Source: Eremomyces bilateralis CBS 781.70
Lineage: Eukaryota
Strand: one strand, 5' to 3'
NCBI GenBank assembly: GCA_010015585.1
Contig: ML975172.1
DNA length: 64,000 nucleotides
The notes beneath the pieces are model-generated. The model was not told the origin of the DNA and ran no database searches. It saw nothing but the letters and a program-made list of their open reading frames with translations. Below, in pieces: positions 18,602 to 44,364 of the stretch; the first letter of the stretch is position 1, and the number at the start of each line of letters is the position of its first letter. The translations under genes and the position numbers were made by a program.

Positions 18602-19689
18602 ACCAGTTAGGGGCAAAGAGTGGTCCTCAAGTTGCAGGAACTCGTCACCACTCAGACCGTGATCGGGCCTGCTACGAAGGCTTTTGTTTCTCGAGGGACC
18701 TGTATGGAGTTATGTTAGTGATACTGCTTTACAACAGTAATGTCAGCGTAGCACTCTAAATTGGTAGCTCAGCGGAGCAGTCCGGTAGCTCGTTTCTCGT
18801 GTTTCCGTCCTGACAGTCAAAGAACTCACTCCGGTCGTCCTTGAGACGATGACATTCTATTAGCATCAATTCATATATATCGGTTCGAATGGATTTTTTC
18901 TTTCTTCGTTGGTAAGCATAAAGTTTCCTGAAAAACCTACCAGGGGTCTACGATTCTGGAGCTACACCTAAAAGGTTGGCTGGCTGCAGCAGAGGAGACC
19001 AGACGCTGAGGACGGAGACCGTGACGTCGACGACATTAAAATCTGAATTATGTACAGTCTGTCTAGCTCGTCTAAATCTTCCATCAATGAGCAATCCCCA
19101 TTGCCCTCTCAGTATCCCATTGCAGTGTGGTGGCATTTTGAGGGCGGAACCCAGGTGATGCCAGCGATCTTGGAAGACCCGAGCGGTCTCTACACCCGAC
19201 ACCTCAGCATGATAATAGTATCCTACGATTTTGTCTTTGGCGTACGGTTATTTCTCCTCCTAACCGTATATGTGGCCGGCTTCAACTCTTAAACCTAATA
19301 CACTTGTGTTTCCAGTCTGGAAACCCTCAGTGATTCGGATCAACCCTATGTCTGTCGATCGCCAGCTCCGCACTGGGTCCGACTACTTCTCCATTCGGCA
19401 TGGTGAGAACAACAACGGTCTGTATCGGGCGTTGTATATTGCTAGGGGCATGCCGCCCGAGATACAGCCAAAGGTATACCAGAGCTTGATTGCCACCCAA
19501 GGATAGATTTGCTGAAACAAAGCGACTGCATCTCGATCGTAGCTGATATCGGGACACAAGTGCAGTGAATAGAGTGGACGGGAGGTATAGGCAATGTAGA
19601 ATCTTCGTGGCCACCGTAGTACGGGAAGAGCTGAGAGGTTGCTGGCTAGAGTTGAAGCATTTAAGAAGATTTAAAGGAGGCACCGGTCC

Positions 19690-19866
19690 TATTCCCATCT
19701 TCGTATAGTCTTGTATACCGTGCTTTCAGCGTCGTTGAGCTTCTCTGCCACCTCCCGCTTGATTTTTCCACTGGATATGCCCTCTAAAAGCGCAGCTCTT
19801 TGAATTTCAATTAATTCGACATTTATTCGTCGATTACCACTAATTTCAGCTCCGGATGATCTCAAT
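19690..19866 (-). mobile_element. Degenerate Tc1/mariner transposase 5' fragment
   Basis: Translates RSSGAEISGNRRINVELIEIQRAALLEGISSGKIKREVAEKLNDAESTVYKTIRRWE, colinear with the N-terminus of the Tc1 ORF at 37729. Confidence 0.8.
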
Positions 19867-20357
19867 TTGATGATTCGTAGGGCAATATCCTAGCTAGCAA
19901 ATCGTACGAGAAGTTTCGAGAAGTACTGGCAAGTAGGATACAGGTATCACCTTTGGATTTGCTACTGGCTTTGATCGTGAGATTCAAGTGGGTAACTACG
20001 TCGCAATGGGATCCCAAGGGAAGGGATATTTGAGAGAAGTGATCCATTTTTGTTTAAAATACATAATTGGATGGACTGAAGCACTCCTGGAAGGATCAGA
20101 GAATCCGATGCTCAGCCGGGGGTCACTGTTCTTCAGTCCGTCGCCGATATTCCCACTGACACTTCGCGCTGCAACATGTTCCAGCCCTTAATCCACAATC
20201 TTGGTGCTCTTTTAATCCTTCTGGCTGTGATCAACTGATCTCCACCTGGAAGTTATCCTATCGTACGGCCCAATCGCAAAGAAACTCTCTCTTATCCACC
20301 CTGTGCTGGAAATATCTCCCGGAAGCGCATGGTGGTTGCCAGAATTCCTCCTCGACT

Positions 20358-28012: not shown

Positions 28013-30516
28013 ATGGCAAGCAACACTCCAGACATCAGTAGCGTGTCCACCAACAGCCATTCGCAGGCCGCAGTGGGTACCTTCCACACACCGGTGTATT
28101 TTGGGTATAACAAAAGCGAGTAGAAATAGCTATTCGCTATACGAAGAGGCTAATCGGCCGTCTAGATCTGAATGATGTGCTCAACCCTCTGCCTGCCGCT
28201 ACAGACGCGCCTTTCAACGCCAGCGACAACACGACCCGAGCTGCCTTCCCGATACCCGCGTAGACCTCCTGCAAGGGATATACAACTGGGCTGATGGCCG
28301 AGACGAGCGCTGCATCTTCTGGTTGAACGGTTTAGCCGGCACGGGAAAGTCGACGATTGCGCGCACTGTAGCGCGCACATATGACCAGAAGCGTCTCGGA
28401 GCTAGCTTCTTCTTCTCGCGCGGCGGTGCAGATGTTGGCCATGCAGGCAAATTCATCCCGAGCATTACGTTGCAGCTGGCGAGCAGTATCCCCTCCCTCG
28501 ACCAACATATATACGATGCTCTCACAGAGCGCCGCGACATTATGAGCCAGTCTCTCCGCGACCAGTGGCAGCAGCTCGTTATTCGTCCGCTATTAAAGTT
28601 GGGCAGAGTCAGTTGCCAATCCTCGTACGTTCTGGTTGTTGATGCACTCGATGAGTGTGATAATGACAACAACATCCAAATTATCATACATCTCTTGGCT
28701 GAAGCTCGATTGTTAAAGACGATTCCATTACGAGTCTTCTAACGAGCCGACCTGTGATTCCAATTCGATATGGATTCGGCCAAATACCCGATGTCGAACA
28801 TATGGATTTTGTACTTCACAATATATCATCATCGATTGTCGATCATGATATCCGTACTTTCTTGCGGCACGAGCTTGAACTCATTGCGGCTAGACATCAC
28901 CTCGGCGCTGGTTGGCCTGGGGACCATATCGTCGAGCAACTCGTCCATAGTGCACATGAGCTATTCATTTGGGCTGCAACCGCATGTCGCTTTAACCATG
29001 AAGGCAGAAGCTTTGCTGCGGATCGCCTGTCCATAATCCTCAAGGCTAACTCCGTAGTTGACTCTGTGGACGGATTTTCTTCAGACGACTGCGACAGATG
29101 ACAAGAATGACGATCCTGCAGTGGCGCCGGAGCGTCACCTCGATAAACTCTACGTTACAGTTCTCCGGAATTCTGTCTATAAGTACAAAAAGCCAGAGAG
29201 AAATAAATGGCGTAAGCGACTGGGGACAGCGGTGGTAACGATTGCTGTACTATCTTCTCCTCTGTCCACGCAGTCACTGAGAAAATACTCGATACCACGC
29301 AAGATCAAATAAACCAAACACTAGACGATCTTCATGCGATTCTAAATATTCCAAACGATCAATCTCAACCGCTTTATTTACATCATCCTTCATTTCGGGA
29401 CTTCCTCCTTAATAGAAAAAGATATGAGCATCTACACTTTGAGATAAACGAGAAGCAAGCACATCAAACCCTTGCTACACAGTGCATTCAACTCATGTCT
29501 AGAGTTTTCAAGCAAAATATGTGTAGTATAGGGCGGCCAGGGCCGCTTGTGGCCATATGTGATACAGGCCGGCCCGGTACGCTTGTGGCTGGCATTGAAA
29601 CCCGTCATGTGGAGCAACACCTCCCTCCAGAGGTTCAGTATGCATGTATCTAAGTTACTGGATCCAGCACCTTCAAAAGAGCAACGTTCAGCTCGACGAC
29701 AACGACCAAGGGCACCGGTTCCTACAGGAGCATCTCCTTCATTGGCTAGAGACCCTTGGATGGATGAAGAAGGTTTCCGAAGGAATTCACGCCATCGTTT
29801 CTCTGGAGTCTACGACAGCGGTAAGCCAGAGTTCCAGACTAAACAGAACGTAAGTACTTAGCTAACCTCCAGCATAGTTGTATAGATGTCCCCAGCTACC
29901 TAGATTTGTTTATGACATGAAGCGATTTATCCTGTATAGCCGGTCCGCGATTGAGCAAGCACCGCTCCAAACGTATTGTAGTACGCTTGTGTTTGCTCCG
30001 GAGGGGAGTATGGTGAAGAGGCAATTCAGAGACTGCGCATGTCGATGGTTGCGAAGATTGCCAAAGATGAATCATGATTGGAATGCGTTGCTGCAGACGC
30101 TCGAGGGCCATTCAGGGTTAGTCTACGCCGTGGCCTTCGCGCCAGACGGCAAGACGCTAGTGTCGGCATCGTACGACAGGACGGTCAAGCTGTGGGATGC
30201 CGGGTCGGGCGTGCTGCAGCAGACGCTCGATATTGGAAACACCATCTACGCTCTCACTTTCTTCGATGACAGTACCTCTCTCCGGGCGGTTCTTGGATCC
30301 TTGCCCATTTTATCACCTCTCTCTAGTGGTATAGGTGTGACCAGTCTACAATATCCATCTTCTATTTTTATCAATGACCTTTGGATAAGTAGCCATACAG
30401 AGCGGGTCATTTGGCTTCCTCCCGAGTATCGGCCACGCTTTATTGCTGTTTATGAGTGCATTGTTGCATTCGGATATACATCTGGAAGAGTTATGACCAT
30501 GAAACTTACTTTGTGA
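28013..30516 (+). pseudogene. NACHT-WD40 NLR (HET-E/NWD-like) pseudogene with short N-terminal extension
   Basis: CLPDTRVDLL, FWLNGLAGTGKST Walker A, VLVVDALDEC Walker [30 protein letters not shown], one WD40 repeat, WLPPEYRP; several stops/frameshifts (e.g. 28740, about 29100, 29310). Confidence 0.9.
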
Positions 30517-35239: not shown

Positions 35240-35419
35240 TTTGTGATGGACTTCGTGGAGAGAATGCGGCCACAATTGTGACAGAACATGGTGCCCAAAG
35301 ATCAGTGGTTCTCATCGGATGCAGCATGATATTCAGAGAGGAACTCTGGCCGAGGTGGACGCCGTGAACACGAACCCCGCAGATCCCCGCAAAGGCCTTG
35401 ATCTCGCTCACCTAGCGGG

Positions 35420-35560
35420 GAAGTGGCATAATATAGACGGATATTATTTTCAAAGTAATACTCTAGAATTTCGAGCGTTTCGTGCGTTCCAAAACCGTCG
35501 TAAATCAAAAAGCATGGCTTTTGATGCGCCCGGCTTTTCACTTTTGGTGATGGTTTGTGC
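35420..35560 (-). mobile_element. Fot1/pogo DDE transposase fragment
   Basis: QKPCFLIYDGFGTHETLEILEYYFENNIRL resembles the second-Asp region of pogo DDE_1 transposases. Confidence 0.7.
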
Positions 35561-35909
35561 ATAGACTGGGTAGCATTTTTTGTCCACAGAGAGCCCAGGC
35601 ATCGACAGTCGGGGAGAATAATCTGTCGGGGGGGAGAAATCTCGCTACCCGGAATAACTTTGGGGTTCGGCGGTCGCACCAATCGTCAAATAGTCGGCAT
35701 AAAGTGAACCTTCCCTTTGGCACCGCAAATCGAATCGTGGTGTCTTTCTGTTTTTTTCCAACTTAAACTTAGAGTACAGTACACGGACTCGCGCTGACTA
35801 ACTGCACTGCCCCGTATACAACACGGTGTATTGAAAGTGATCCCCATGATCAGGATACACCCACTTTGCACTCGCGAATTCTTTCCTACCATCTTCATCT
35901 TTGAATGGT

Positions 35910-36135
35910 GTGTAACCGAGCCGCCATGGCTCTCAAGTGTCTGGATGCATTCGCAGGTATTAGCACGCCAGACCCGGACTATGTTATCACGCGCGGCCAA
36001 GGTGATAAGGACAGAGTTATGCGAGAAGGCCATAGAGGTAACCAAGTCGCCATAGCCGTTATGTGTCTGGACGCAGTCGCCCGTGTCAGCACACCAGACC
36101 TGGACTGTCTTATTATATGAGGCTGAGGCAATAAA
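35910..36135 (-). pseudogene. HET-E-type WD40 repeat remnant (about 2 repeats)
   Basis: KTVQVWCADTGDCVQTHNGYGDLVTSMAFSHNSVLITLAARDNIVRVWRANTCECIQTLESHGGSVT. Confidence 0.75.
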
Positions 36136-36159
36136 GGTAGAGTTTCATCAAATTGCCTA

Positions 36160-36740: not shown

Positions 36741-37639
36741 GTAAAGCTTCAAAGATACCGACGAATCTCTTCCACACAATTGAGTGATATGTTGATCGCC
36801 AACAAATACTACTTTGCCGATTGACTTAACTAGTTATATAAACATCGGACAGCCATCCAGGACCTTGTGGACGGACCACCGAAGGCAGGGGATTTATAAG
36901 CCCGGGACGCGGTTCAGCCCGGTCCTAGCTGTCCTCGGTCCTGGCCCTAGGTCCTGCAGGAAGTGGCTTAGAAATCCTCAATAGCACCATTCTATGGGTG
37001 TTTGGCCACCCTTGCCGAGCATTAGAACGAACTTATGATCCACAAAAGGTAAATTGACACTAAGCCAGCCAATAATATGTTACGAAGATATGAGCAGCAC
37101 CTGCTCCATGCAGGCTCTCGTGTCGTACCTTGCCTGTGAAGCCATGGAATCAAGTTCTAAACCCCACTTTGACGATGAAATCAGGGCGGCAGTAACTCTG
37201 CGTGTCCTTTTGCGTATGTTGAATGGCATGCGTCCGCAAGTTTCACCCACTTTCGAAAACATCGATTAAGGACAGCGAGAGCGTCAAATATGAGAGCTCC
37301 CGTCAGCTCGAGACGGGACGTGTTGACTACGGCATCCTCATGTCGTCATCAGGCCAGCCCTATTTCGTTCATTGTGCTCAGCCGATTCGCTGCACGCGAT
37401 ATTTGAAACCAGGTATAATTATGGAGACTAGCTTCCAAAATAGGTAGCGAGCTTTTTCCTTAAACGGGTGATTGGGGGGAGAGAGAGAGATTCATACGCC
37501 CGTCAGGCCGCTCTGCGAGGCCCATGCGGCCATGCCCCATGGGGAACAGGGGAACAAACTACCTAGGCTGACTAATTACATGCGTTGGTGCCTTGTGGCC
37601 TTATGGCCCCATTTTCTATCTACGTACTAATTAACTTCT

Positions 37640-38935
37640 AACTACGCCATAAGTCTGTTCAGAGTCTACGCACAACAAAATTCAGGCCTGACACCACCAT
37701 ATCTTCCACCATCAATATCTCCACGAAAATGAGGTCGTTTGGTACAGAAATTAGTGGCAATCGACGGCAAAATGCTGAATTATCCGAGAATCAAAGAGCT
37801 GGGATTTTAGAGGCTGTTTCCGGGGGGAAAACTAAGGCCGCGGTGGCAGAGGAGTTTCAGGTCGCAGAACGGACGGTGTACAAGACCTTGCAACGCTGGG
37901 AAGAGCACCACATCACTCAATCTAAACCCCGCCAAGGGGCCCCCCTAAAATTATCGCGTCGCGACGAACGATATCTTGTACAGTACGCACGCCGGTTCCC
38001 CACGGTTGAGTACAGCGAGCTCGTTCAAAGCGTCCGCCATATGCGAGTCTCAAAGACAACGATATACCGGACTCTTAAGAAACACCACCTTACAAAGTGG
38101 CGAGCACGGAAAAGGCCTCATCTGTAGCCCGGGCACGCAAAAAACCGGCTTCAATTTGCCCGCGAGTATCAACATTTCGACTTCTCTGGGTCCACTCAAC
38201 CGACGAGTGCTCCTATGAGAAGGGGGCGGGCGGTAAGCGCGTCTGGGTATGGCGCTTTTATCACGAGGCATACGATCCACGTATGATCGAGCCAAAGACT
38301 TCTGGTAAGGCGATTTCGCGGATGATCTGGGGCTCAATCTCGCGTGAGGGGAGGTCAGATCTGGTGATCATGGACCGCGACGAAGACTCCCCCAGGCAAG
38401 GATATTCCGCGAAATCCTATATCGCTACATGGAGGAGGGACTCCTCCCTACGTACGATCCCGGGGATGTTATGATACAGGATAACGCAAGGGTTCATACT
38501 GCGAAACTCACGCAGGAATGGCTGGAGACTCACGGTATTTGGGTGCTCGATTGGCCAGCTAATTCTCCGGACCTGAACCCCATCGAACACATGTGGCACT
38601 TACTTAAAAGCAAAGTCCTAGAGCTCCACCCTGAATTGAAACAGATGGGCTCATCAGAGGAGGTACGGGAGGCGATGAATGCCGCGTTGAAAGAGGCGTG
38701 GTGGGCAGTGCCTCAGGAAACGATTACCAAGCTAATTGACTCAATTCCGCGGCGGTTACGGGCGGTAATTAAAGCAAAAGGATGGCATACCAAACACTAG
38801 GCTATTCCTAATTAGACAATCTGAAAAAAGTATACTGATCGCTTTCTCTACGCTTTTGAGCGTTTCTCGCAAAGGGGTGGTGATGGGAAAAAATCACGTG
38901 GTTGACGACCCTGAACAGACTTATGGCGTGTTATT
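37640..38935 (+). mobile_element. Tc1/mariner DNA transposon, full length, disrupted transposase (37729-38800)
   Basis: Inverted repeat ACGCCATAAGTCTGTTCAG at 37644 and 38911-38929; HTH N-terminus, TDEC, QDNARVH, WPANSPDLNPIE (DD34E); TAG at 38125 and frameshifts. Confidence 0.92.
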
Positions 38936-38967
38936 GTAGTTAACTAGTTAACTTAACTAACTAACTA

Positions 38968-40813
38968 ACGTAATCCACCAGCGAGTCGCCCAAACCACCG
39001 AGTCGCCCACTTCATCTCCGTAACAGCGATCATCACGATTTTTTCGCAATGTCTCAACAACAGAGCCCTCAATTACCTTCAAATGAAGCTAGAATGAACC
39101 TAGCCATCCAGACTATCGAACAAGACCAAGTTCAATCAATTCGAGAAGCTGCAAAAGCTTACAACGTCCCGTGGAGTACCTTACGTGACCGCCGCAACGG
39201 AATGACTGCACGAAGCGATTGTGTCCCGAATTCGAAAAAGCTCTCAAATATGGAAGAAAGGGTGATTATCGACTACTGCCTCGATGTCGACGCGCGCGGA
39301 TTTCAGCTCAATTACGATATGTTGCGAGATATAGCCAACAAGCTACTCAGCGATCGCGGTCAGGCTCACGTTGGTATCAATTGGCCGTCAAGATTCGTAC
39401 AACGCGTTCCAGAGCTCAAAACACGTGTTAATCGAAAGTACGACTATAAAAGAGCCCTGAACGAAGATCCAGAGATTATTGGCGCGTGGTTTCGCCTCGT
39501 ACGCAACGTGAAGGCAAAATACGGTATCCTGGATGAAGATACATACAACTTTGATGAAGTTGGCTTTCAAATGGGCGTAATCGGGACGCGCATGGTCATC
39601 ACGGGTACCGAACGACGTCAGACTCCAAAAACCTTGCAGCCAGGCAATACAGAATGGGTGACATCGATCATTGCTGCCAGCGCGCAAGGTTGGATTGTCC
39701 CACCCTTCATCATCTTCAAAAGCGCTCGACATTACAATACCTGGTACGAGGCGATTGCGGATAGGCCTGATTGGGTTCTATCAGTTAGCGAGAAGGGCTG
39801 GACGTCCCTTGAGCATGGATTTGAGTGGTTAAAGCATTTTAATCGCTTCACAGAAGACCGTACGACTGGCGCCTATCGGCTTCTGATTATGGATGGCCAT
39901 AACAGCCATGACACTATCCAATTCCAGGATTTCTGCAAGGACCAGAAGATTATTACTCTCTGCATGCCTTCGCATTCATCTCATTTGCTACAACCCCTCG
40001 ACGTTGGCTGTTTTGGGCCATTAAAGCGCGCGTATAGCAAGGAGATTGAGGACTTTATCCGGTGCCGCATCAACCACATCACGAAAGAGGACTTTTTACC
40101 TGCTTTCAAGACCGCCTTCGAAAAAGCAATTGCTACGGAGAATATCCAGGGCGCCTTCAAAGGCGCAGGATTAGTGCCTTTCGATCCAGAAGCTGTTATT
40201 TCAAAGCTTGATGTCCGATTACAGACCCCGACGCCATTACCAGAGATCACTCAATGGGAGTCGCAAACACCACGCAACGTCGCTGAAATAAGGTCCCAAA
40301 CAGAGTACATACGACAGCGCCTTCAAAGAGATCAAAATACCTCCCCAACACCGCTTTTAGAAAGCTTTTCAAGCCTTGAAAAGGGTGTTCAAATGGTCGC
40401 GCACGGAGCTTCAATCATGGAGGTCGAGATAGGAAAGCTTCGGAAGGCAAACGAGACGCTATCAAAGCGCAAACAACGCAAAAAAAAGGTGCTTAAGGGC
40501 GCTAATACGCGCTCAATTACTGATGGGCTTGAATTAGCTGTACAACGTCGGGATCAAGATATAATCAGTGAAAATGGTACTTCTAATGACGTTCCCGCAA
40601 GGCGCCAGCGACGTTGCGGACGCTGTCGCGAGCCAGGACATCGCGTTGAGACCTGTACAATGCCTCAATTAGCTATACCAGAAAACGTAGATCCTAGCCT
40701 ACTTCCTAATTAATAAATTGCTTCAGTAGTTGTTGAGATATTCAGGTTACGGTAGTGGGCCACGGTTGAGGTGGGCGACTCGGTGGTTTGGGCGACTCGC
40801 TGGTGGATTACGT
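38968..40813 (+). mobile_element. Fot1/pogo-like DNA transposon, apparently intact
   Basis: Perfect 43-bp TIRs (ACGTAATCCACCAGCGAGTCGCCCAAACCACCGAGTCGCCCAC), TA on both sides, uninterrupted transposase. Confidence 0.97.
39049..40713 (+). CDS. Fot1/pogo transposase (HTH_psq, CENP-B HTH, DDE_1, C-terminal CCHC)
   Basis: YNFDEVGF, LIMDGHNSH, SHLLQPLDVGCF, RCGRCREPGHRVETC. Confidence 0.96.
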   Translation: MSQQQSPQLPSNEARMNLAIQTIEQDQVQSIREAAKAYNVPWSTLRDRRNGMTARSDCVPNSKKLSNMEERVIIDYCLDVDARGFQLNYDMLRDIANKLLSDRGQAHVGINWPSRFVQRVPELKTRVNRKYDYKRALNEDPEIIGAWFRLVRNVKAKYGILDEDTYNFDEVGFQMGVIGTRMVITGTERRQTPKTLQPGNTEWVTSIIAASAQGWIVPPFIIFKSARHYNTWYEAIADRPDWVLSVSEKGWTSLEHGFEWLKHFNRFTEDRTTGAYRLLIMDGHNSHDTIQFQDFCKDQKIITLCMPSHSSHLLQPLDVGCFGPLKRAYSKEIEDFIRCRINHITKEDFLPAFKTAFEKAIATENIQGAFKGAGLVPFDPEAVISKLDVRLQTPTPLPEITQWESQTPRNVAEIRSQTEYIRQRLQRDQNTSPTPLLESFSSLEKGVQMVAHGASIMEVEIGKLRKANETLSKRKQRKKKVLKGANTRSITDGLELAVQRRDQDIISENGTSNDVPARRQRRCGRCREPGHRVETCTMPQLAIPENVDPSLLPN

Positions 40814-40863
40814 TAGTTAACTAAGTTAACTTAACTATCGATAACTAACTAACTATCCAACCT

Positions 40864-41350
40864 TTAACTCCCTTTGCCAAACGTGACCCCACTAATTATT
40901 CCCGAGTTGTGACCTAACTGCCATCCTGAACTATTGCTGCCTGAGAAGACCATCGTACAATGTGAATCATGTTTGTCGCGTGGCTCTTGCCCTGGCAAGC
41001 TAGATCGCAATTGCGAGCACACAACCTCAGAAGTGACCTGGCCAGCCTTGAGTAGGCGTGGTTGCTCTTCGACTTCCTGAATTGCTAGCGCACGCTGAGC
41101 GCCGCCATCTTTTTCATCCTCTGGCTCTTCCTGGAAATGCTCTCCCCGCTTCTGGACCTTGTCTTATTGCTTTCTTGTGGCCTCAATATGCTCCTGAATG
41201 GCCTTCTCTAGAGTTTGTACTTGCTCTATAAGCTTCTTGTGGTCGGTGTCGGCACCACATTGTGATCGGAGCCGAACAATGCTTCTGGAATATTAGTTTG
41301 TGTGTCCCAAATAAAATAGAAGAGCAGGCACACAGTTGGGTGCTTTCTAT
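40864..41350 (-). pseudogene. Small helical protein with C-terminal PP/RHIM-like amyloid signalling motif (damaged)
   Basis: Intron 41285-41333; frame ..KLIEQVQTLEKAIQEHIEATRKQ*DKVQ...TMVFSGSNSSGWQLGHNSGIISGVTFGKGS*; one CAA->TAA-type stop; possible ATG->ATA start. Confidence 0.65.
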
Positions 41351-41569
41351 GCGAGGGTAAAATGGAGGGGAAGTGACGCAAGACCTTTGGAGCAAATAAC
41401 AGTCTCAGGTTGTGTAGTGCGGACAGGGGAGAACAGAAGACAACGATTCGAAGAACGCGAAGAGTAGGAGGGCGGCACCATTTGAAATGAACTTCGTGGA
41501 ATCCCAAAGATCTAGAAGTCCAGGCACAATGTCACTTAGCGGTTGTGTAAGCAGTACCATACTACAAAG

Positions 41570-43450
41570 ATACTACACGAAAACGGAGCATCTGATAGCA
41601 GAGCACAGGAATATAAACTACAAAACAGAAACCAGACAGAGTTCCAGACATACTACATAAGAAAATAGGAAACAGAAACCGGACCACAAACGCCAGGCCC
41701 ATAGACCACAGAAAACAACCACATAGACCCACAGACCACAGGAAACGAAACACAGACCCAGAGAGGACAGAAAACGAAATGGCGCGAAGGGATGAGGAGA
41801 GAGGGGAGAGAGGAGGAGAGAGGGGAGAGAGGAGGGGGGGAGGAAAAAGGAGAAGAGAAAAGAAAGGAGAGAGGGGAAAGGAGAGGGGACAAGGGGGAGA
41901 AGAACGGGGGCTAACCGCCGGACCCAGAGTCGCGGGAGCGAGGAGGGGGTGCCGTAAGGGCAAACGACATTGTCGCTAGTGTATCTTTTTGAAGCGGTGT
42001 GGGTCCTTTCTGCCTAGAGCTAATATCAAACAGCTCTTTAAAACACTCCATATCTACATCCTCAAACGGCTCTGCAAGGCACATTGAATACCAAGCTTTA
42101 TGAAGCTTGATTTCGCTGCTTCGGAGCCAGTCTTTCTCTCCACGCTCTGCCTGAAAAATCCCCCACACGAACGAGCCCAGGGATATATACATGGCTATTT
42201 ACGTTAGTTTACAAACGAAACACAGTTTTAAATGGACATAATAACAGAATATAGTTTCGAATAACCAAATGCGGATTTAAATAGACAAATAGAAGGATAA
42301 AGTTAGAGGGAATACATATCTAGATGGATAAAATGCAGATTCAAATGGACAGCTAGATAAAACATAGGCAAAAGATAGATAAAACACGGATAACTAACTA
42401 TATAAAATATTTAACTTACACTTGCAATAAAGTTTCCCCAACTCAGAGGACCTGTCTACATCTAGATATCCCTTCATATAATACCACATATTAAGAAAGT
42501 CTTCCGAAGAGAACTTCTCGCCGAGATGGATGGCAACACCAGTGACATCAAGTCAAGATAAAGACTTGATTTAGGAGCACGTTCTGCTCGAGCCGGTCCT
42601 ACATATGTAGTGGTTAAATACTTAAACATTGAATTCTGGATTTGGACATATAGATCTGGAGTGAGATATGGAGATCTAGAGTTGGATCTATGCTTCTGGA
42701 ACTTGACTTCTGGATATGGAGTTTTGGAGATTTGAACTTGATTTGAACTTGATTTGAACATTAAAATGGACTTTGAAAATGGACTTGAAAATGGAATCTA
42801 GACTTAGGGACTTAGAATTTTGAACTTACTCTCATTTTCTCGAAGGTATATAGATATTGAACGATTTGACTTGATCTTTAAAGACCTGTTTGGCCCGGCG
42901 CTAGAGGGCAGAATCCGCAGTCATGTCGGCCGGAAAATCCTGGCCGTACACCTTCCGGATCGACGAAGGGTGGGCATCGGCGTTCTGGTTGAGGAACTAA
43001 CTCCACCGAGTTTCGCGCCCAAATTGCTTTGATAGTGACAGGAAATCAAGCTCGGACTGGGACACTTGTCCGTTCTTGGTCTGCTTACTGCGCTTCTTCG
43101 GCGCAGAGAGCTCTTCGCGGCGCTTTCGCTTGCGTGCCTATACCACCAAACGAGTCAATTACTACAATTTATATGGATTTACTAGGGAATTATAGTAAAT
43201 GATTCATAGGGATATAAAAACAAGTAAACTTACGCGTGGAGAAAGGGAATCTTCCTGAAGAGAAGCAGTCCCATCTTCAAAATCGAGAGGAGCCTATACC
43301 ACCGAAACCGAGTTCTGCTGCCCCATAGACATTCTCTATAGCTTAATGGCAAGGAGATCTTTCTATGATAATTATAGATAAAATTATAGAAATCTCTAAA
43401 CTGCGTTTGATGATGGCGGCACAGATGGTGAAATGGGCCTACAGATAAAA
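41570..43450 (-). other. Unidentified RIP-like degraded element or gene with low-complexity tracts
   Basis: A/C-rich repeats 41600-41780, polypurine tract 41790-41910, AT-rich 42200-42480, GGACTT(T)GAAAAT repeats at about 42770; interrupted minus-strand coding frames with a GTAAGT donor at about 43232. Confidence 0.4.
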
Positions 43451-44364
43451 TGACACACAGCTCAGAGTTCTGGCTTTCATAGAAGACCTCATTCAGTGGT
43501 TATGTAGCGTTTAATGGTAGATCAACGAGTTTGCACTAGTGACCAGCATAGGAGGGTTATTGATGTATTTAGCGCGGAGCCCAATTGAGCACCCTGACTT
43601 GAAGCTCACTCGGGATATACTATACCGACCAGGTCACGTAACTAATGAAGCCGTTTGGGCTGCATATATAAACTGCGGAGTGTCCTAGTGCTTTACTAGT
43701 AGGTGGGATCCTGAATTGCCTTGTCCTGAAGATAATGCAATTCGGGGTGCGTCGTCTAACTATAGTAAGTTATGGGAGATGCTTCGAAAGACGAAGATTG
43801 ACAAGCAATAATGATTAATTAAAGCGACAGAAAGGTCAAGGTGACTAAGCTAAAATCACGTGACTCGGAGCTCGGAGTTCGGTCCATTCAAAATTCCGAA
43901 CCAGCGATGTGGCGTAATTATGCCTAATTTCGCCTAAGGCATCATATACCGGGATCGCCACAATTTCAGTGATTACTCAATCAAAACGAACCTCCTCAAG
44001 TCGTCAACGACCACGCAATTCCTCCACCTTCGACGCAGCCCTGGCTTGATATCGCAGCGATGAGTCGACGCGTGGCATTTAGCCGCCTTCCGTAAACAGT
44101 CTCGATAGTAGCTTCTAGCTACTTCGCGCTTCACATAGAGCGCGACCGGCCAATAGAATAGATGATTACGTTGGTTTATCCACTGATCAATCTTGAGAGG
44201 CGAGATTGCGTATGCTTCTCTGCCTGTCCTGGAAGCGTGTATAAAACGAGGTTTGGTATTGTATTTTCGAGTCTCAATAAAGCAATTCGATCAATCTCAC
44301 ATTCACGTACACCATCACCCAAATCTATTTCACAGTTTTTTGACCATCTCTTTATCGATCCAAC

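Follow-up and report, generated by a model that had tools for sequence, protein, structure and literature searches.

A probable 5'-truncated relic of a HELLP-type amyloid cell-death effector gene beside mobile DNA in a fungal genome

The window (by which we mean the whole 64-kb stretch of DNA that was analysed, with positions counted from its first letter) holds on its minus strand a stop-to-stop frame of 99 aa at 40864-41163, with TMVFSGSNSSGWQLGHNSGIISGVTFGKGS at its C-terminal end. Upstream of an in-frame TAA the same minus-strand frame reads ...IVRLRSQCGADTDHKKLIEQVQTLEKAIQEHIEATRKQ (longer stretch: SIVRLRSQCGADTDHKKLIEQVQTLEKAIQEHIEATRKQ). The minus-strand frame with a terminal motif that an original prediction had placed here is indeed real, as seen in the 99-aa frame itself and in the read-through past the TAA. 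Taken as a whole, the last exon, which terminates in ...FSGSNSSGWQLGHNSGIISGVTFGKGS, aligns to about positions 147-258 of a family profile that we built from 8 full-length relatives, and shares 51-76% identity with the closest relatives. The features of the locus and its surroundings are collected in Table 1.

Table 1. Features at and around the relic, in window coordinates
Feature	Position	Strand	Remarks
Relic last exon	40864-41284	-	stop codon 40864-40866; helical-region tail (HeLo-like), acidic linker, PP motif
PP-type amyloid signalling motif MVFSGSNSSGWQLGHNSGIISGVTFGK	40873-40953	-	core G-W-Q-L-G-H-N
In-frame TAA	41164-41166	-	conserved Gln column
49-nt intron GTGTGC...CTAAT...CAG	41285-41333	-	splicing +14.6 bits
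Upstream-exon remnant ...LLQRSCVTSPPFYPRIESTQL	41334-41404	-	TGA 41405-41407 bounds upstream side; homology fading
Multi-copy repeat, no family match	41398-41680	.	starts at end of gene homology
pogo/Fot1-type transposon, 1.9 kb	38937-40849	+	intact 579-aa transposase frame 38974-40713
Tc1/mariner-type transposon	37626-38948	+	adjoins pogo; HTH_Tnp_Tc3_2, DDE_3
NACHT-WD40 NLR pseudogene	28013-30516	+	several frame changes; context, not partner

The gene remnant has two exons, as had been predicted, and the intron between them is backed by the gain in profile score on splicing. Unspliced, the profile match runs from 41283 to 40954 (profile positions 147-256) and scores 99.7 bits; when 41333-41285, with its GTGTGC donor, CTAAT branch site and CAG acceptor, is excised, ...RIESTQL is fused to SIVRLRSQ, the family pattern STQL-x-I/V-x-LRS ('avtSTQL-iiqLRSe') is restored and the score rises to 114.3 bits. 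We prefer the spliced model because its profile score is higher than that of the read-through alignments, and a one-frame tblastn read-through of the intron (NCVPALLFYLGHTN followed by a stop and YS) was discarded for the same reason. The profile alignment begins at RIESTQL, and its envelope extends about 16 residues further upstream. This bears directly on the proposal that an ATA at 41350 is a decayed start codon. Since family homology continues through the ATA, with RIESTQL aligned to the family's 'avtSTQL', we conclude that it is no decayed start; the family proteins reach about 140 residues further upstream.

How good is the terminal motif? PF17046 (Ses_B) is the only Pfam family reported for the 99-aa frame, at 19.4 bits (E 1e-3) against a curated cut-off of 23.2, and the last 33 aa by themselves score 22.5 bits in the Pfam scan, also below the cut-off. 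Passages of PMC9815663 write the PP core as NxGxQxGxN. The right half of the relic core (G-H-N) matches this form, whereas the left flank reads N-S-S-G-W-Q and so has its N one residue out of register; the pattern NxG-phi-Q-phi-GxN claimed in the original prediction fits on the right, but is not borne out on the left flank or by the Pfam cut-off. A profile built from the PP tails of the relatives, a scan that had been proposed as a check, finds the motif at E 6.6e-10 as its only match in the six-frame window, the runner-up standing at E 1.8. A search for the bare G-phi-Q-phi-G pattern gives 4 sites in the six frames of the window, and PP context is found at the relic site only. The closest relative, P0004 (76% identity over 72 aa), carries the motif N-N-T-G-W-Q-L-G-H-N with a PF17046 score of 32.8 bits, and its tail is identical to that of the relic at 22 of 25 positions, as read from the alignment by eye. 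To judge from these sequence comparisons, the PP motif of the relic is more than a chance resemblance.

With the relic frame, carrying an X at the stop, as query, phmmer was run exhaustively against 1.84 billion representatives and returned 39 relatives at E<=1e-3, of which 19 lie at E<=1e-10 and the best at 2.7e-24. A word-index search added 8 further relatives, 3 of them with a precomputed PF17046 match. Among the 249 candidates of a 'longer' word-index search with the relic, not one reached E<=1e-3. Full-length relatives are 255-305 aa long and carry the HeLo-like domain PF17111, which is named 'PigL_N' in the Pfam copy used here and is given as Helo_like_N / HeLo-like in passages of PMC9815663. 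Among the 47 relatives scanned, PF17111 stands above its cut-off in 8 (P0011, P0013, P0014, P0017, P0021, P0025, P0026 and P0039) and PF17046 in 6 (P0004, P0008, P0014, P0041, P0042 and P0043), with PF17046 below the cut-off in 4 more. P0014 (282 aa) has both above cut-off, PF17111 at residues 1-218 and PF17046 at residues 251-277. As for the second of these names, passages of bioRxiv 10.1101/2020.01.06.895854 speak of 'Ses_B (PF17046, aka PP-motif)', and one sentence in the introduction of the same source ties PF17046 to the sigma motif instead. A Pfam scan of the relic read-through product gave no direct match to PF17111. Since, moreover, its own PF17046 score is below the cut-off, membership of the relic in the family rests on its homology to the relatives. 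The search for homologues with the stop repaired, another of the proposed checks, thus came out positively, and the assignment to the PP/HELLP-type family stands on the strength of the best match and of the double architecture of P0014.

Many of the database relatives are short, 72-190 aa, and these dominate the match lists. Several of them (P0045, P0006, P0044 and P0010) start just past the intron position or enter intron-like sequence before I(V/I)QLRSE, and most of the short relatives come from contigs of 0.6-6 kb. They look like calls of last-exon open reading frames rather than natural short forms.

We placed the relic in a tree of 41 rows, built from the helical region that they share, P0004 and P0037 being left out for their short overlap; the tree is drawn with a midpoint and is unrooted. 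The relic falls in a PP-tailed clade of 12 rows with support 98/89, which together with 1 degenerate member forms a supported group of 13 (97/81). Its end branch measures 0.76 against a median of 0.35, a length that fits relaxed constraint. The rows with other tails mostly end in a double repeat, ...NVITSD.SKALVG...VTT...SAAAVGVF..., a label given by pattern to 20 of the 41 rows and for which Pfam names no family. Over relatives P0002-P0048, one HeLo-like scaffold bears either a PP tail or a double-repeat tail. On this unrooted tree the two tail types look as if one family had exchanged its class of amyloid motif a single time.

How much of the gene remains? The window copy covers only profile positions 141-258, and positions 1-140 find no match in any frame of the 64 kb, either with hmmsearch --max or with tblastn using 11 relatives. 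The relic thus lacks about 140 N-terminal residues, the hydrophobic N-terminus among them, and no ATG stands where its homologous stretch begins. The profile alignment did not lengthen when the frame was carried upstream to 41572, 41704 or 42004, and a likeness seen by eye around the upstream TGA, where some relatives have R, was too weak to count. For orientation we used an AlphaFold model of P0014, made from a 36-row alignment (pLDDT 77.1, pTM 0.71), which has 8 helices (13-29, 32-57, 63-76, 78-102, 110-116, 119-152, 158-203 and 208-245) followed by a disordered tail. Mapped on this model, the relic spans the final part of helix 119-152, both long helices after it (158-203 and 208-245) and the disordered tail; of the helical region it keeps the last third. 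The predicted stretch of about 110 aa of helical sequence was therefore a fair description, but by this mapping the stretch forms the rear portion of a larger domain. A Foldseek search of the P0014 model against the PDB gave nothing at E<=1e-3, and in a wide VIA-align run the top match had Z 11.3, to designed helical bundles, in a range that is unspecific for helical proteins. Because the fold searches returned only generic helical bundles, we base the HeLo-like assignment on Pfam.

The in-frame TAA falls in a column which, after the prior removal of 5 unrelated or multi-domain matches, has residues from 40 relatives, namely Q in 25, H in 6, K in 3, R in 2 and P, L, E and S in 1 each, besides 2 gaps. 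Since the column is mostly Q, CAA>TAA is the simplest change. The claim that a single CAA to TAA change knocked out the gene is accordingly right about the likeliest origin of this stop, but there are more lesions: the loss of the N-terminal 140 or so residues and the TGA, a further stop immediately ahead of the first residues that can still be recognised. Contigs from what is probably the source sample (X1 record 4, covering 40795-41464, and X2 record 10) show both the TAA and the unspliced intron, without differing letters. The TAA is also found with no differing letters in a second sample, in record 20 of X3 (41020-41464, depth 5). X3 is guessed to be RNA, and its sole contig over 41020-41464 is unspliced; at a depth as low as 5, expression cannot be inferred from it. 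Dinucleotide indices show no signature of RIP (TpA/ApT 0.76, (CpA+TpG)/(ApC+GpT) 1.51), and we therefore attribute the stop to a plain point change.

The relic is hemmed in by mobile DNA on both sides. On its downstream side the pogo element starts 11-30 nt beyond the relic stop codon. This element has inverted repeats at 38937-39014 and 40767-40847 (90% identical, rising to 98% in a 53-nt core), a TA at each end, and a transposase with the Pfam domains DDE_1 (4.1e-28), HTH_psq and HTH_Tnp_Tc5. Its insertion did not shorten the protein, because the C-termini of the relatives lie within 0-3 residues of the end of the window copy. In DNA contig sets, words from the pogo terminal repeats occur at about 175x the unique depth, from which the family or miniature derivatives of it would be abundant and possibly active. 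The adjoining mariner element has its transposase split over at least 2 frames (37642-38127 and 38348-38800) and inverted ends at 37626-37666 and 38907-38948 that are 86% identical. Elsewhere in the window, 19685-19868 is 72% similar to the mariner stretch 37726-37909 in opposite orientation and is probably an older mariner relic. A by-eye guess that 35302-35685 on the minus strand is a transposase relic found no Pfam support.

On the upstream side, contig depth in the DNA runs rises to about 5x that of the unique flank between about 41400 and 41530, breaks between contigs fall at 41426-41527, and 41502-41680 is covered by divergent paralogous contigs; it is from the depth jump, the breaks and the paralogous contigs that we take a multi-copy repeat to begin where gene homology stops. 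The relic fragment itself lies at single-copy depth (229, vs 218-229 in the unique flank). The repeat matches no Pfam family and no tRNA, and in Rfam only a sub-threshold NEAT1_2 at E 0.23. Its depth in X3 is about 200-370x that of the unique flank, vs about 5x in the DNA runs, and thus other copies of the repeat may sit in a highly expressed transcript. Further upstream, none of the 13 open reading frames of at least 55 aa in 41405-44290 has a Pfam family. A CT-rich low-complexity tract at 41760-41960 carries no coding signal, nor does an AT-rich region with short dispersed direct repeats at 42200-42850 (39.5% GC over 42001-43000).

The window has a fungal character, with short introns and genes that include a phytase-type histidine phosphatase, GH92, RTA1 and NACHT-WD40. 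The NACHT-WD40 gene has its domains in different frames, NPHP3_N/NACHT at 28176-28742, a winged helix at 29216-29653 and WD40 at 29878-30516, and one frame change falls within a conserved ...DAPFNA/QRQHDPSCLP... stretch; as read from these frames, it is evidently a pseudogene. An isolated WD40-repeat fragment of HET-E/NWD type at 35686-36144 on the minus strand, with no NACHT domain near it, is another NLR remnant. Could the NACHT-WD40 gene have been the partner of the effector? Its N-terminus reads MASNTPDISSVSTNSHSQAAVGTFHTPVYFG and includes a short motif of about 30 aa, ISSVSTNSHSQAAVGTFH, which has no Pfam family and scores -0.2 bits with the PP profile, and hence is not PP. Intact NLR relatives (P0057, P0062, P0063 and P0065) begin with a motif like it. 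A profile of the double-repeat tail has one match in the six frames, which is this N-terminus (28034-28087, E 0.046), and it scores P0065 at 2.9e-5. The match between the NLR motif and the double-repeat tails of the effector family is marginal but pointed. Since the two motif classes differ, the NLR relic and the effector relic do not appear to be a cognate pair. The proposed search for an NLR with an N-terminal PP motif came back empty within the 64 kb, where the relic tail is the sole PP-like motif in six frames. Among the 120 closest NACHT relatives listed, 3 start with a PP-type motif: P0134 and P0138 (E about 1e-7) and the weaker P0060 (PP profile E 0.013, Pfam Ses_B just 15.2 bits). Beyond the window, the genome could still contain the lost 5' part, an intact paralogue or a PP-bearing NLR.

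Taken together, these results lead us to regard the locus, with considerable confidence, as a pseudogene in which only the 3' part of a HELLP-type cell-death effector gene survives, truncated at its 5' end and interrupted by stops. The relic is an ordinary member of a known effector family, and no new kind of adaptor. By the mechanism described in the literature, the N-terminal HeLo-like helical domain (PF17111) of intact relatives would be kept inactive until the matching motif of an activated NLR templates amyloid formation by the C-terminal PP motif (PF17046); membrane attack by the HeLo-like domain would follow. Of this machinery the relic retains the last helical stretch, the acidic linker and the PP tail, with the killing domain and the start codon gone; no killer protein can come from it in its present state. 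Its setting in mobile DNA, with the pogo element and then the mariner behind its stop codon and the multi-copy repeat at the end of gene homology, suggests that a repeat-mediated insertion or deletion may have taken away the 5' part.

The original prediction had favoured a different picture, namely a naturally short PP-motif adaptor or decoy of about 145 aa, devoid of the HeLo-like killing domain and lately inactivated by the single CAA>TAA change. The good preservation of the tail and linker of the relic, and the many database relatives of only 72-190 aa, are what one would expect in this case. However, those short relatives begin at or after the conserved intron position, some with intron-like sequence, just as callers of open reading frames yield on fungal DNA, and homology passes upstream through the proposed ATA start. 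With full-length relatives of 255-305 aa, transposon and repeat flanks, no ATG, an additional upstream TGA to make two stops, and a branch about twice the median length, we consider a short adaptor very unlikely.

Alternatively, the gene might be intact, with its N-terminal exons far upstream or outside the window and the TAA either varying between strains or resulting from faulty assembly. Of the two samples with the TAA, one may be that from which the assembly was made; the stop is also present in the second-sample contig. Moreover, profile positions 1-140 cannot be traced in 64 kb, and the relatives seem to have one short intron here and no long ones; we therefore hold an intact gene with distant exons to be extremely unlikely. 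Being wedged between a multi-copy repeat and a pogo element, the fragment could also have been captured and moved by one of the neighbouring transposons instead of having decayed in place. Against this, it lies at single-copy depth, and the inverted repeats of the pogo element close at 40847-40849, outside the fragment, which leaves us with strong doubts about such a capture. A decayed effector gene accounts best for the locus in our judgement.

We can nevertheless imagine a more active role for such a remnant. A frame of 29 codons from an ATG at 40953-40951 on the minus strand encodes the PP motif alone. If a flanking promoter transcribes it, the peptide could be a free amyloid seed, or could alternatively compete with a PP-bearing NLR/effector pair elsewhere in the genome. 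Moreover, the PP-tailed effector relic and an NLR relic with an older double-repeat motif could record a switch of amyloid-motif class in one effector family. That the remnant is active in this way, with a related history of class switching at the locus, is extremely improbable.

More generally, the locus, read as a pseudogene, shows that a PP-motif (RHIM-like) amyloid cell-death effector was formerly present in this fungus, and that regions rich in transposons and NLRs are places where such genes decay, as is expected for fast-turnover immune-type loci. The locus matters little on its own, and should be annotated as a pseudogene. The comparison set gathered around it, in which one scaffold bears two tail types and NACHT-WD40 N-termini occur with either, may be mildly useful for studies of amyloid-motif exchange.

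The closest known system is that of HELLP and CgHELLP in Podospora anserina and Chaetomium globosum, with the NLR PNT1. According to passages of PMC7885112 and PMC5485727, the PP tail of HELLP is a prion-forming segment that the N-terminus of PNT1, the adjacent NLR, converts; HELLP then relocates to the membrane and cell death follows. The relatives of the relic have the same PF17111 plus PF17046 architecture, and its tail has the G-phi-Q-phi-G-x-N core, a likeness judged by architecture and motif. Unlike HELLP, the relic lacks the N-terminal two thirds, which are HeLo-like, it is broken by premature stops, and no PP-bearing NLR adjoins it. HeLo-like proteins with HRAM motifs, in pairs of the HELLF/FNT1 type, use the same helical scaffold, and the 20 of 41 tree rows with double-repeat tails are 'HRAM-like' by pattern reading; the N-terminal motif of the window NLR pseudogene resembles that tail, whereas the relic itself sits in the PP-tailed clade. 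The pseudo-palindromic PP motif, of roughly 20 aa, is presented as related to RHIM in parts of PMC5485727 and PMC9815663, and the GxQxG segment of mammalian RHIM (RIP1/RIP3) is common to PP according to passages of PMC5485727 and PMC7885112. For the 33-aa tail, Pfam listed Ses_B alone at E<=10 and no RHIM family, in a search in which HMMER filters drop most weak matches.
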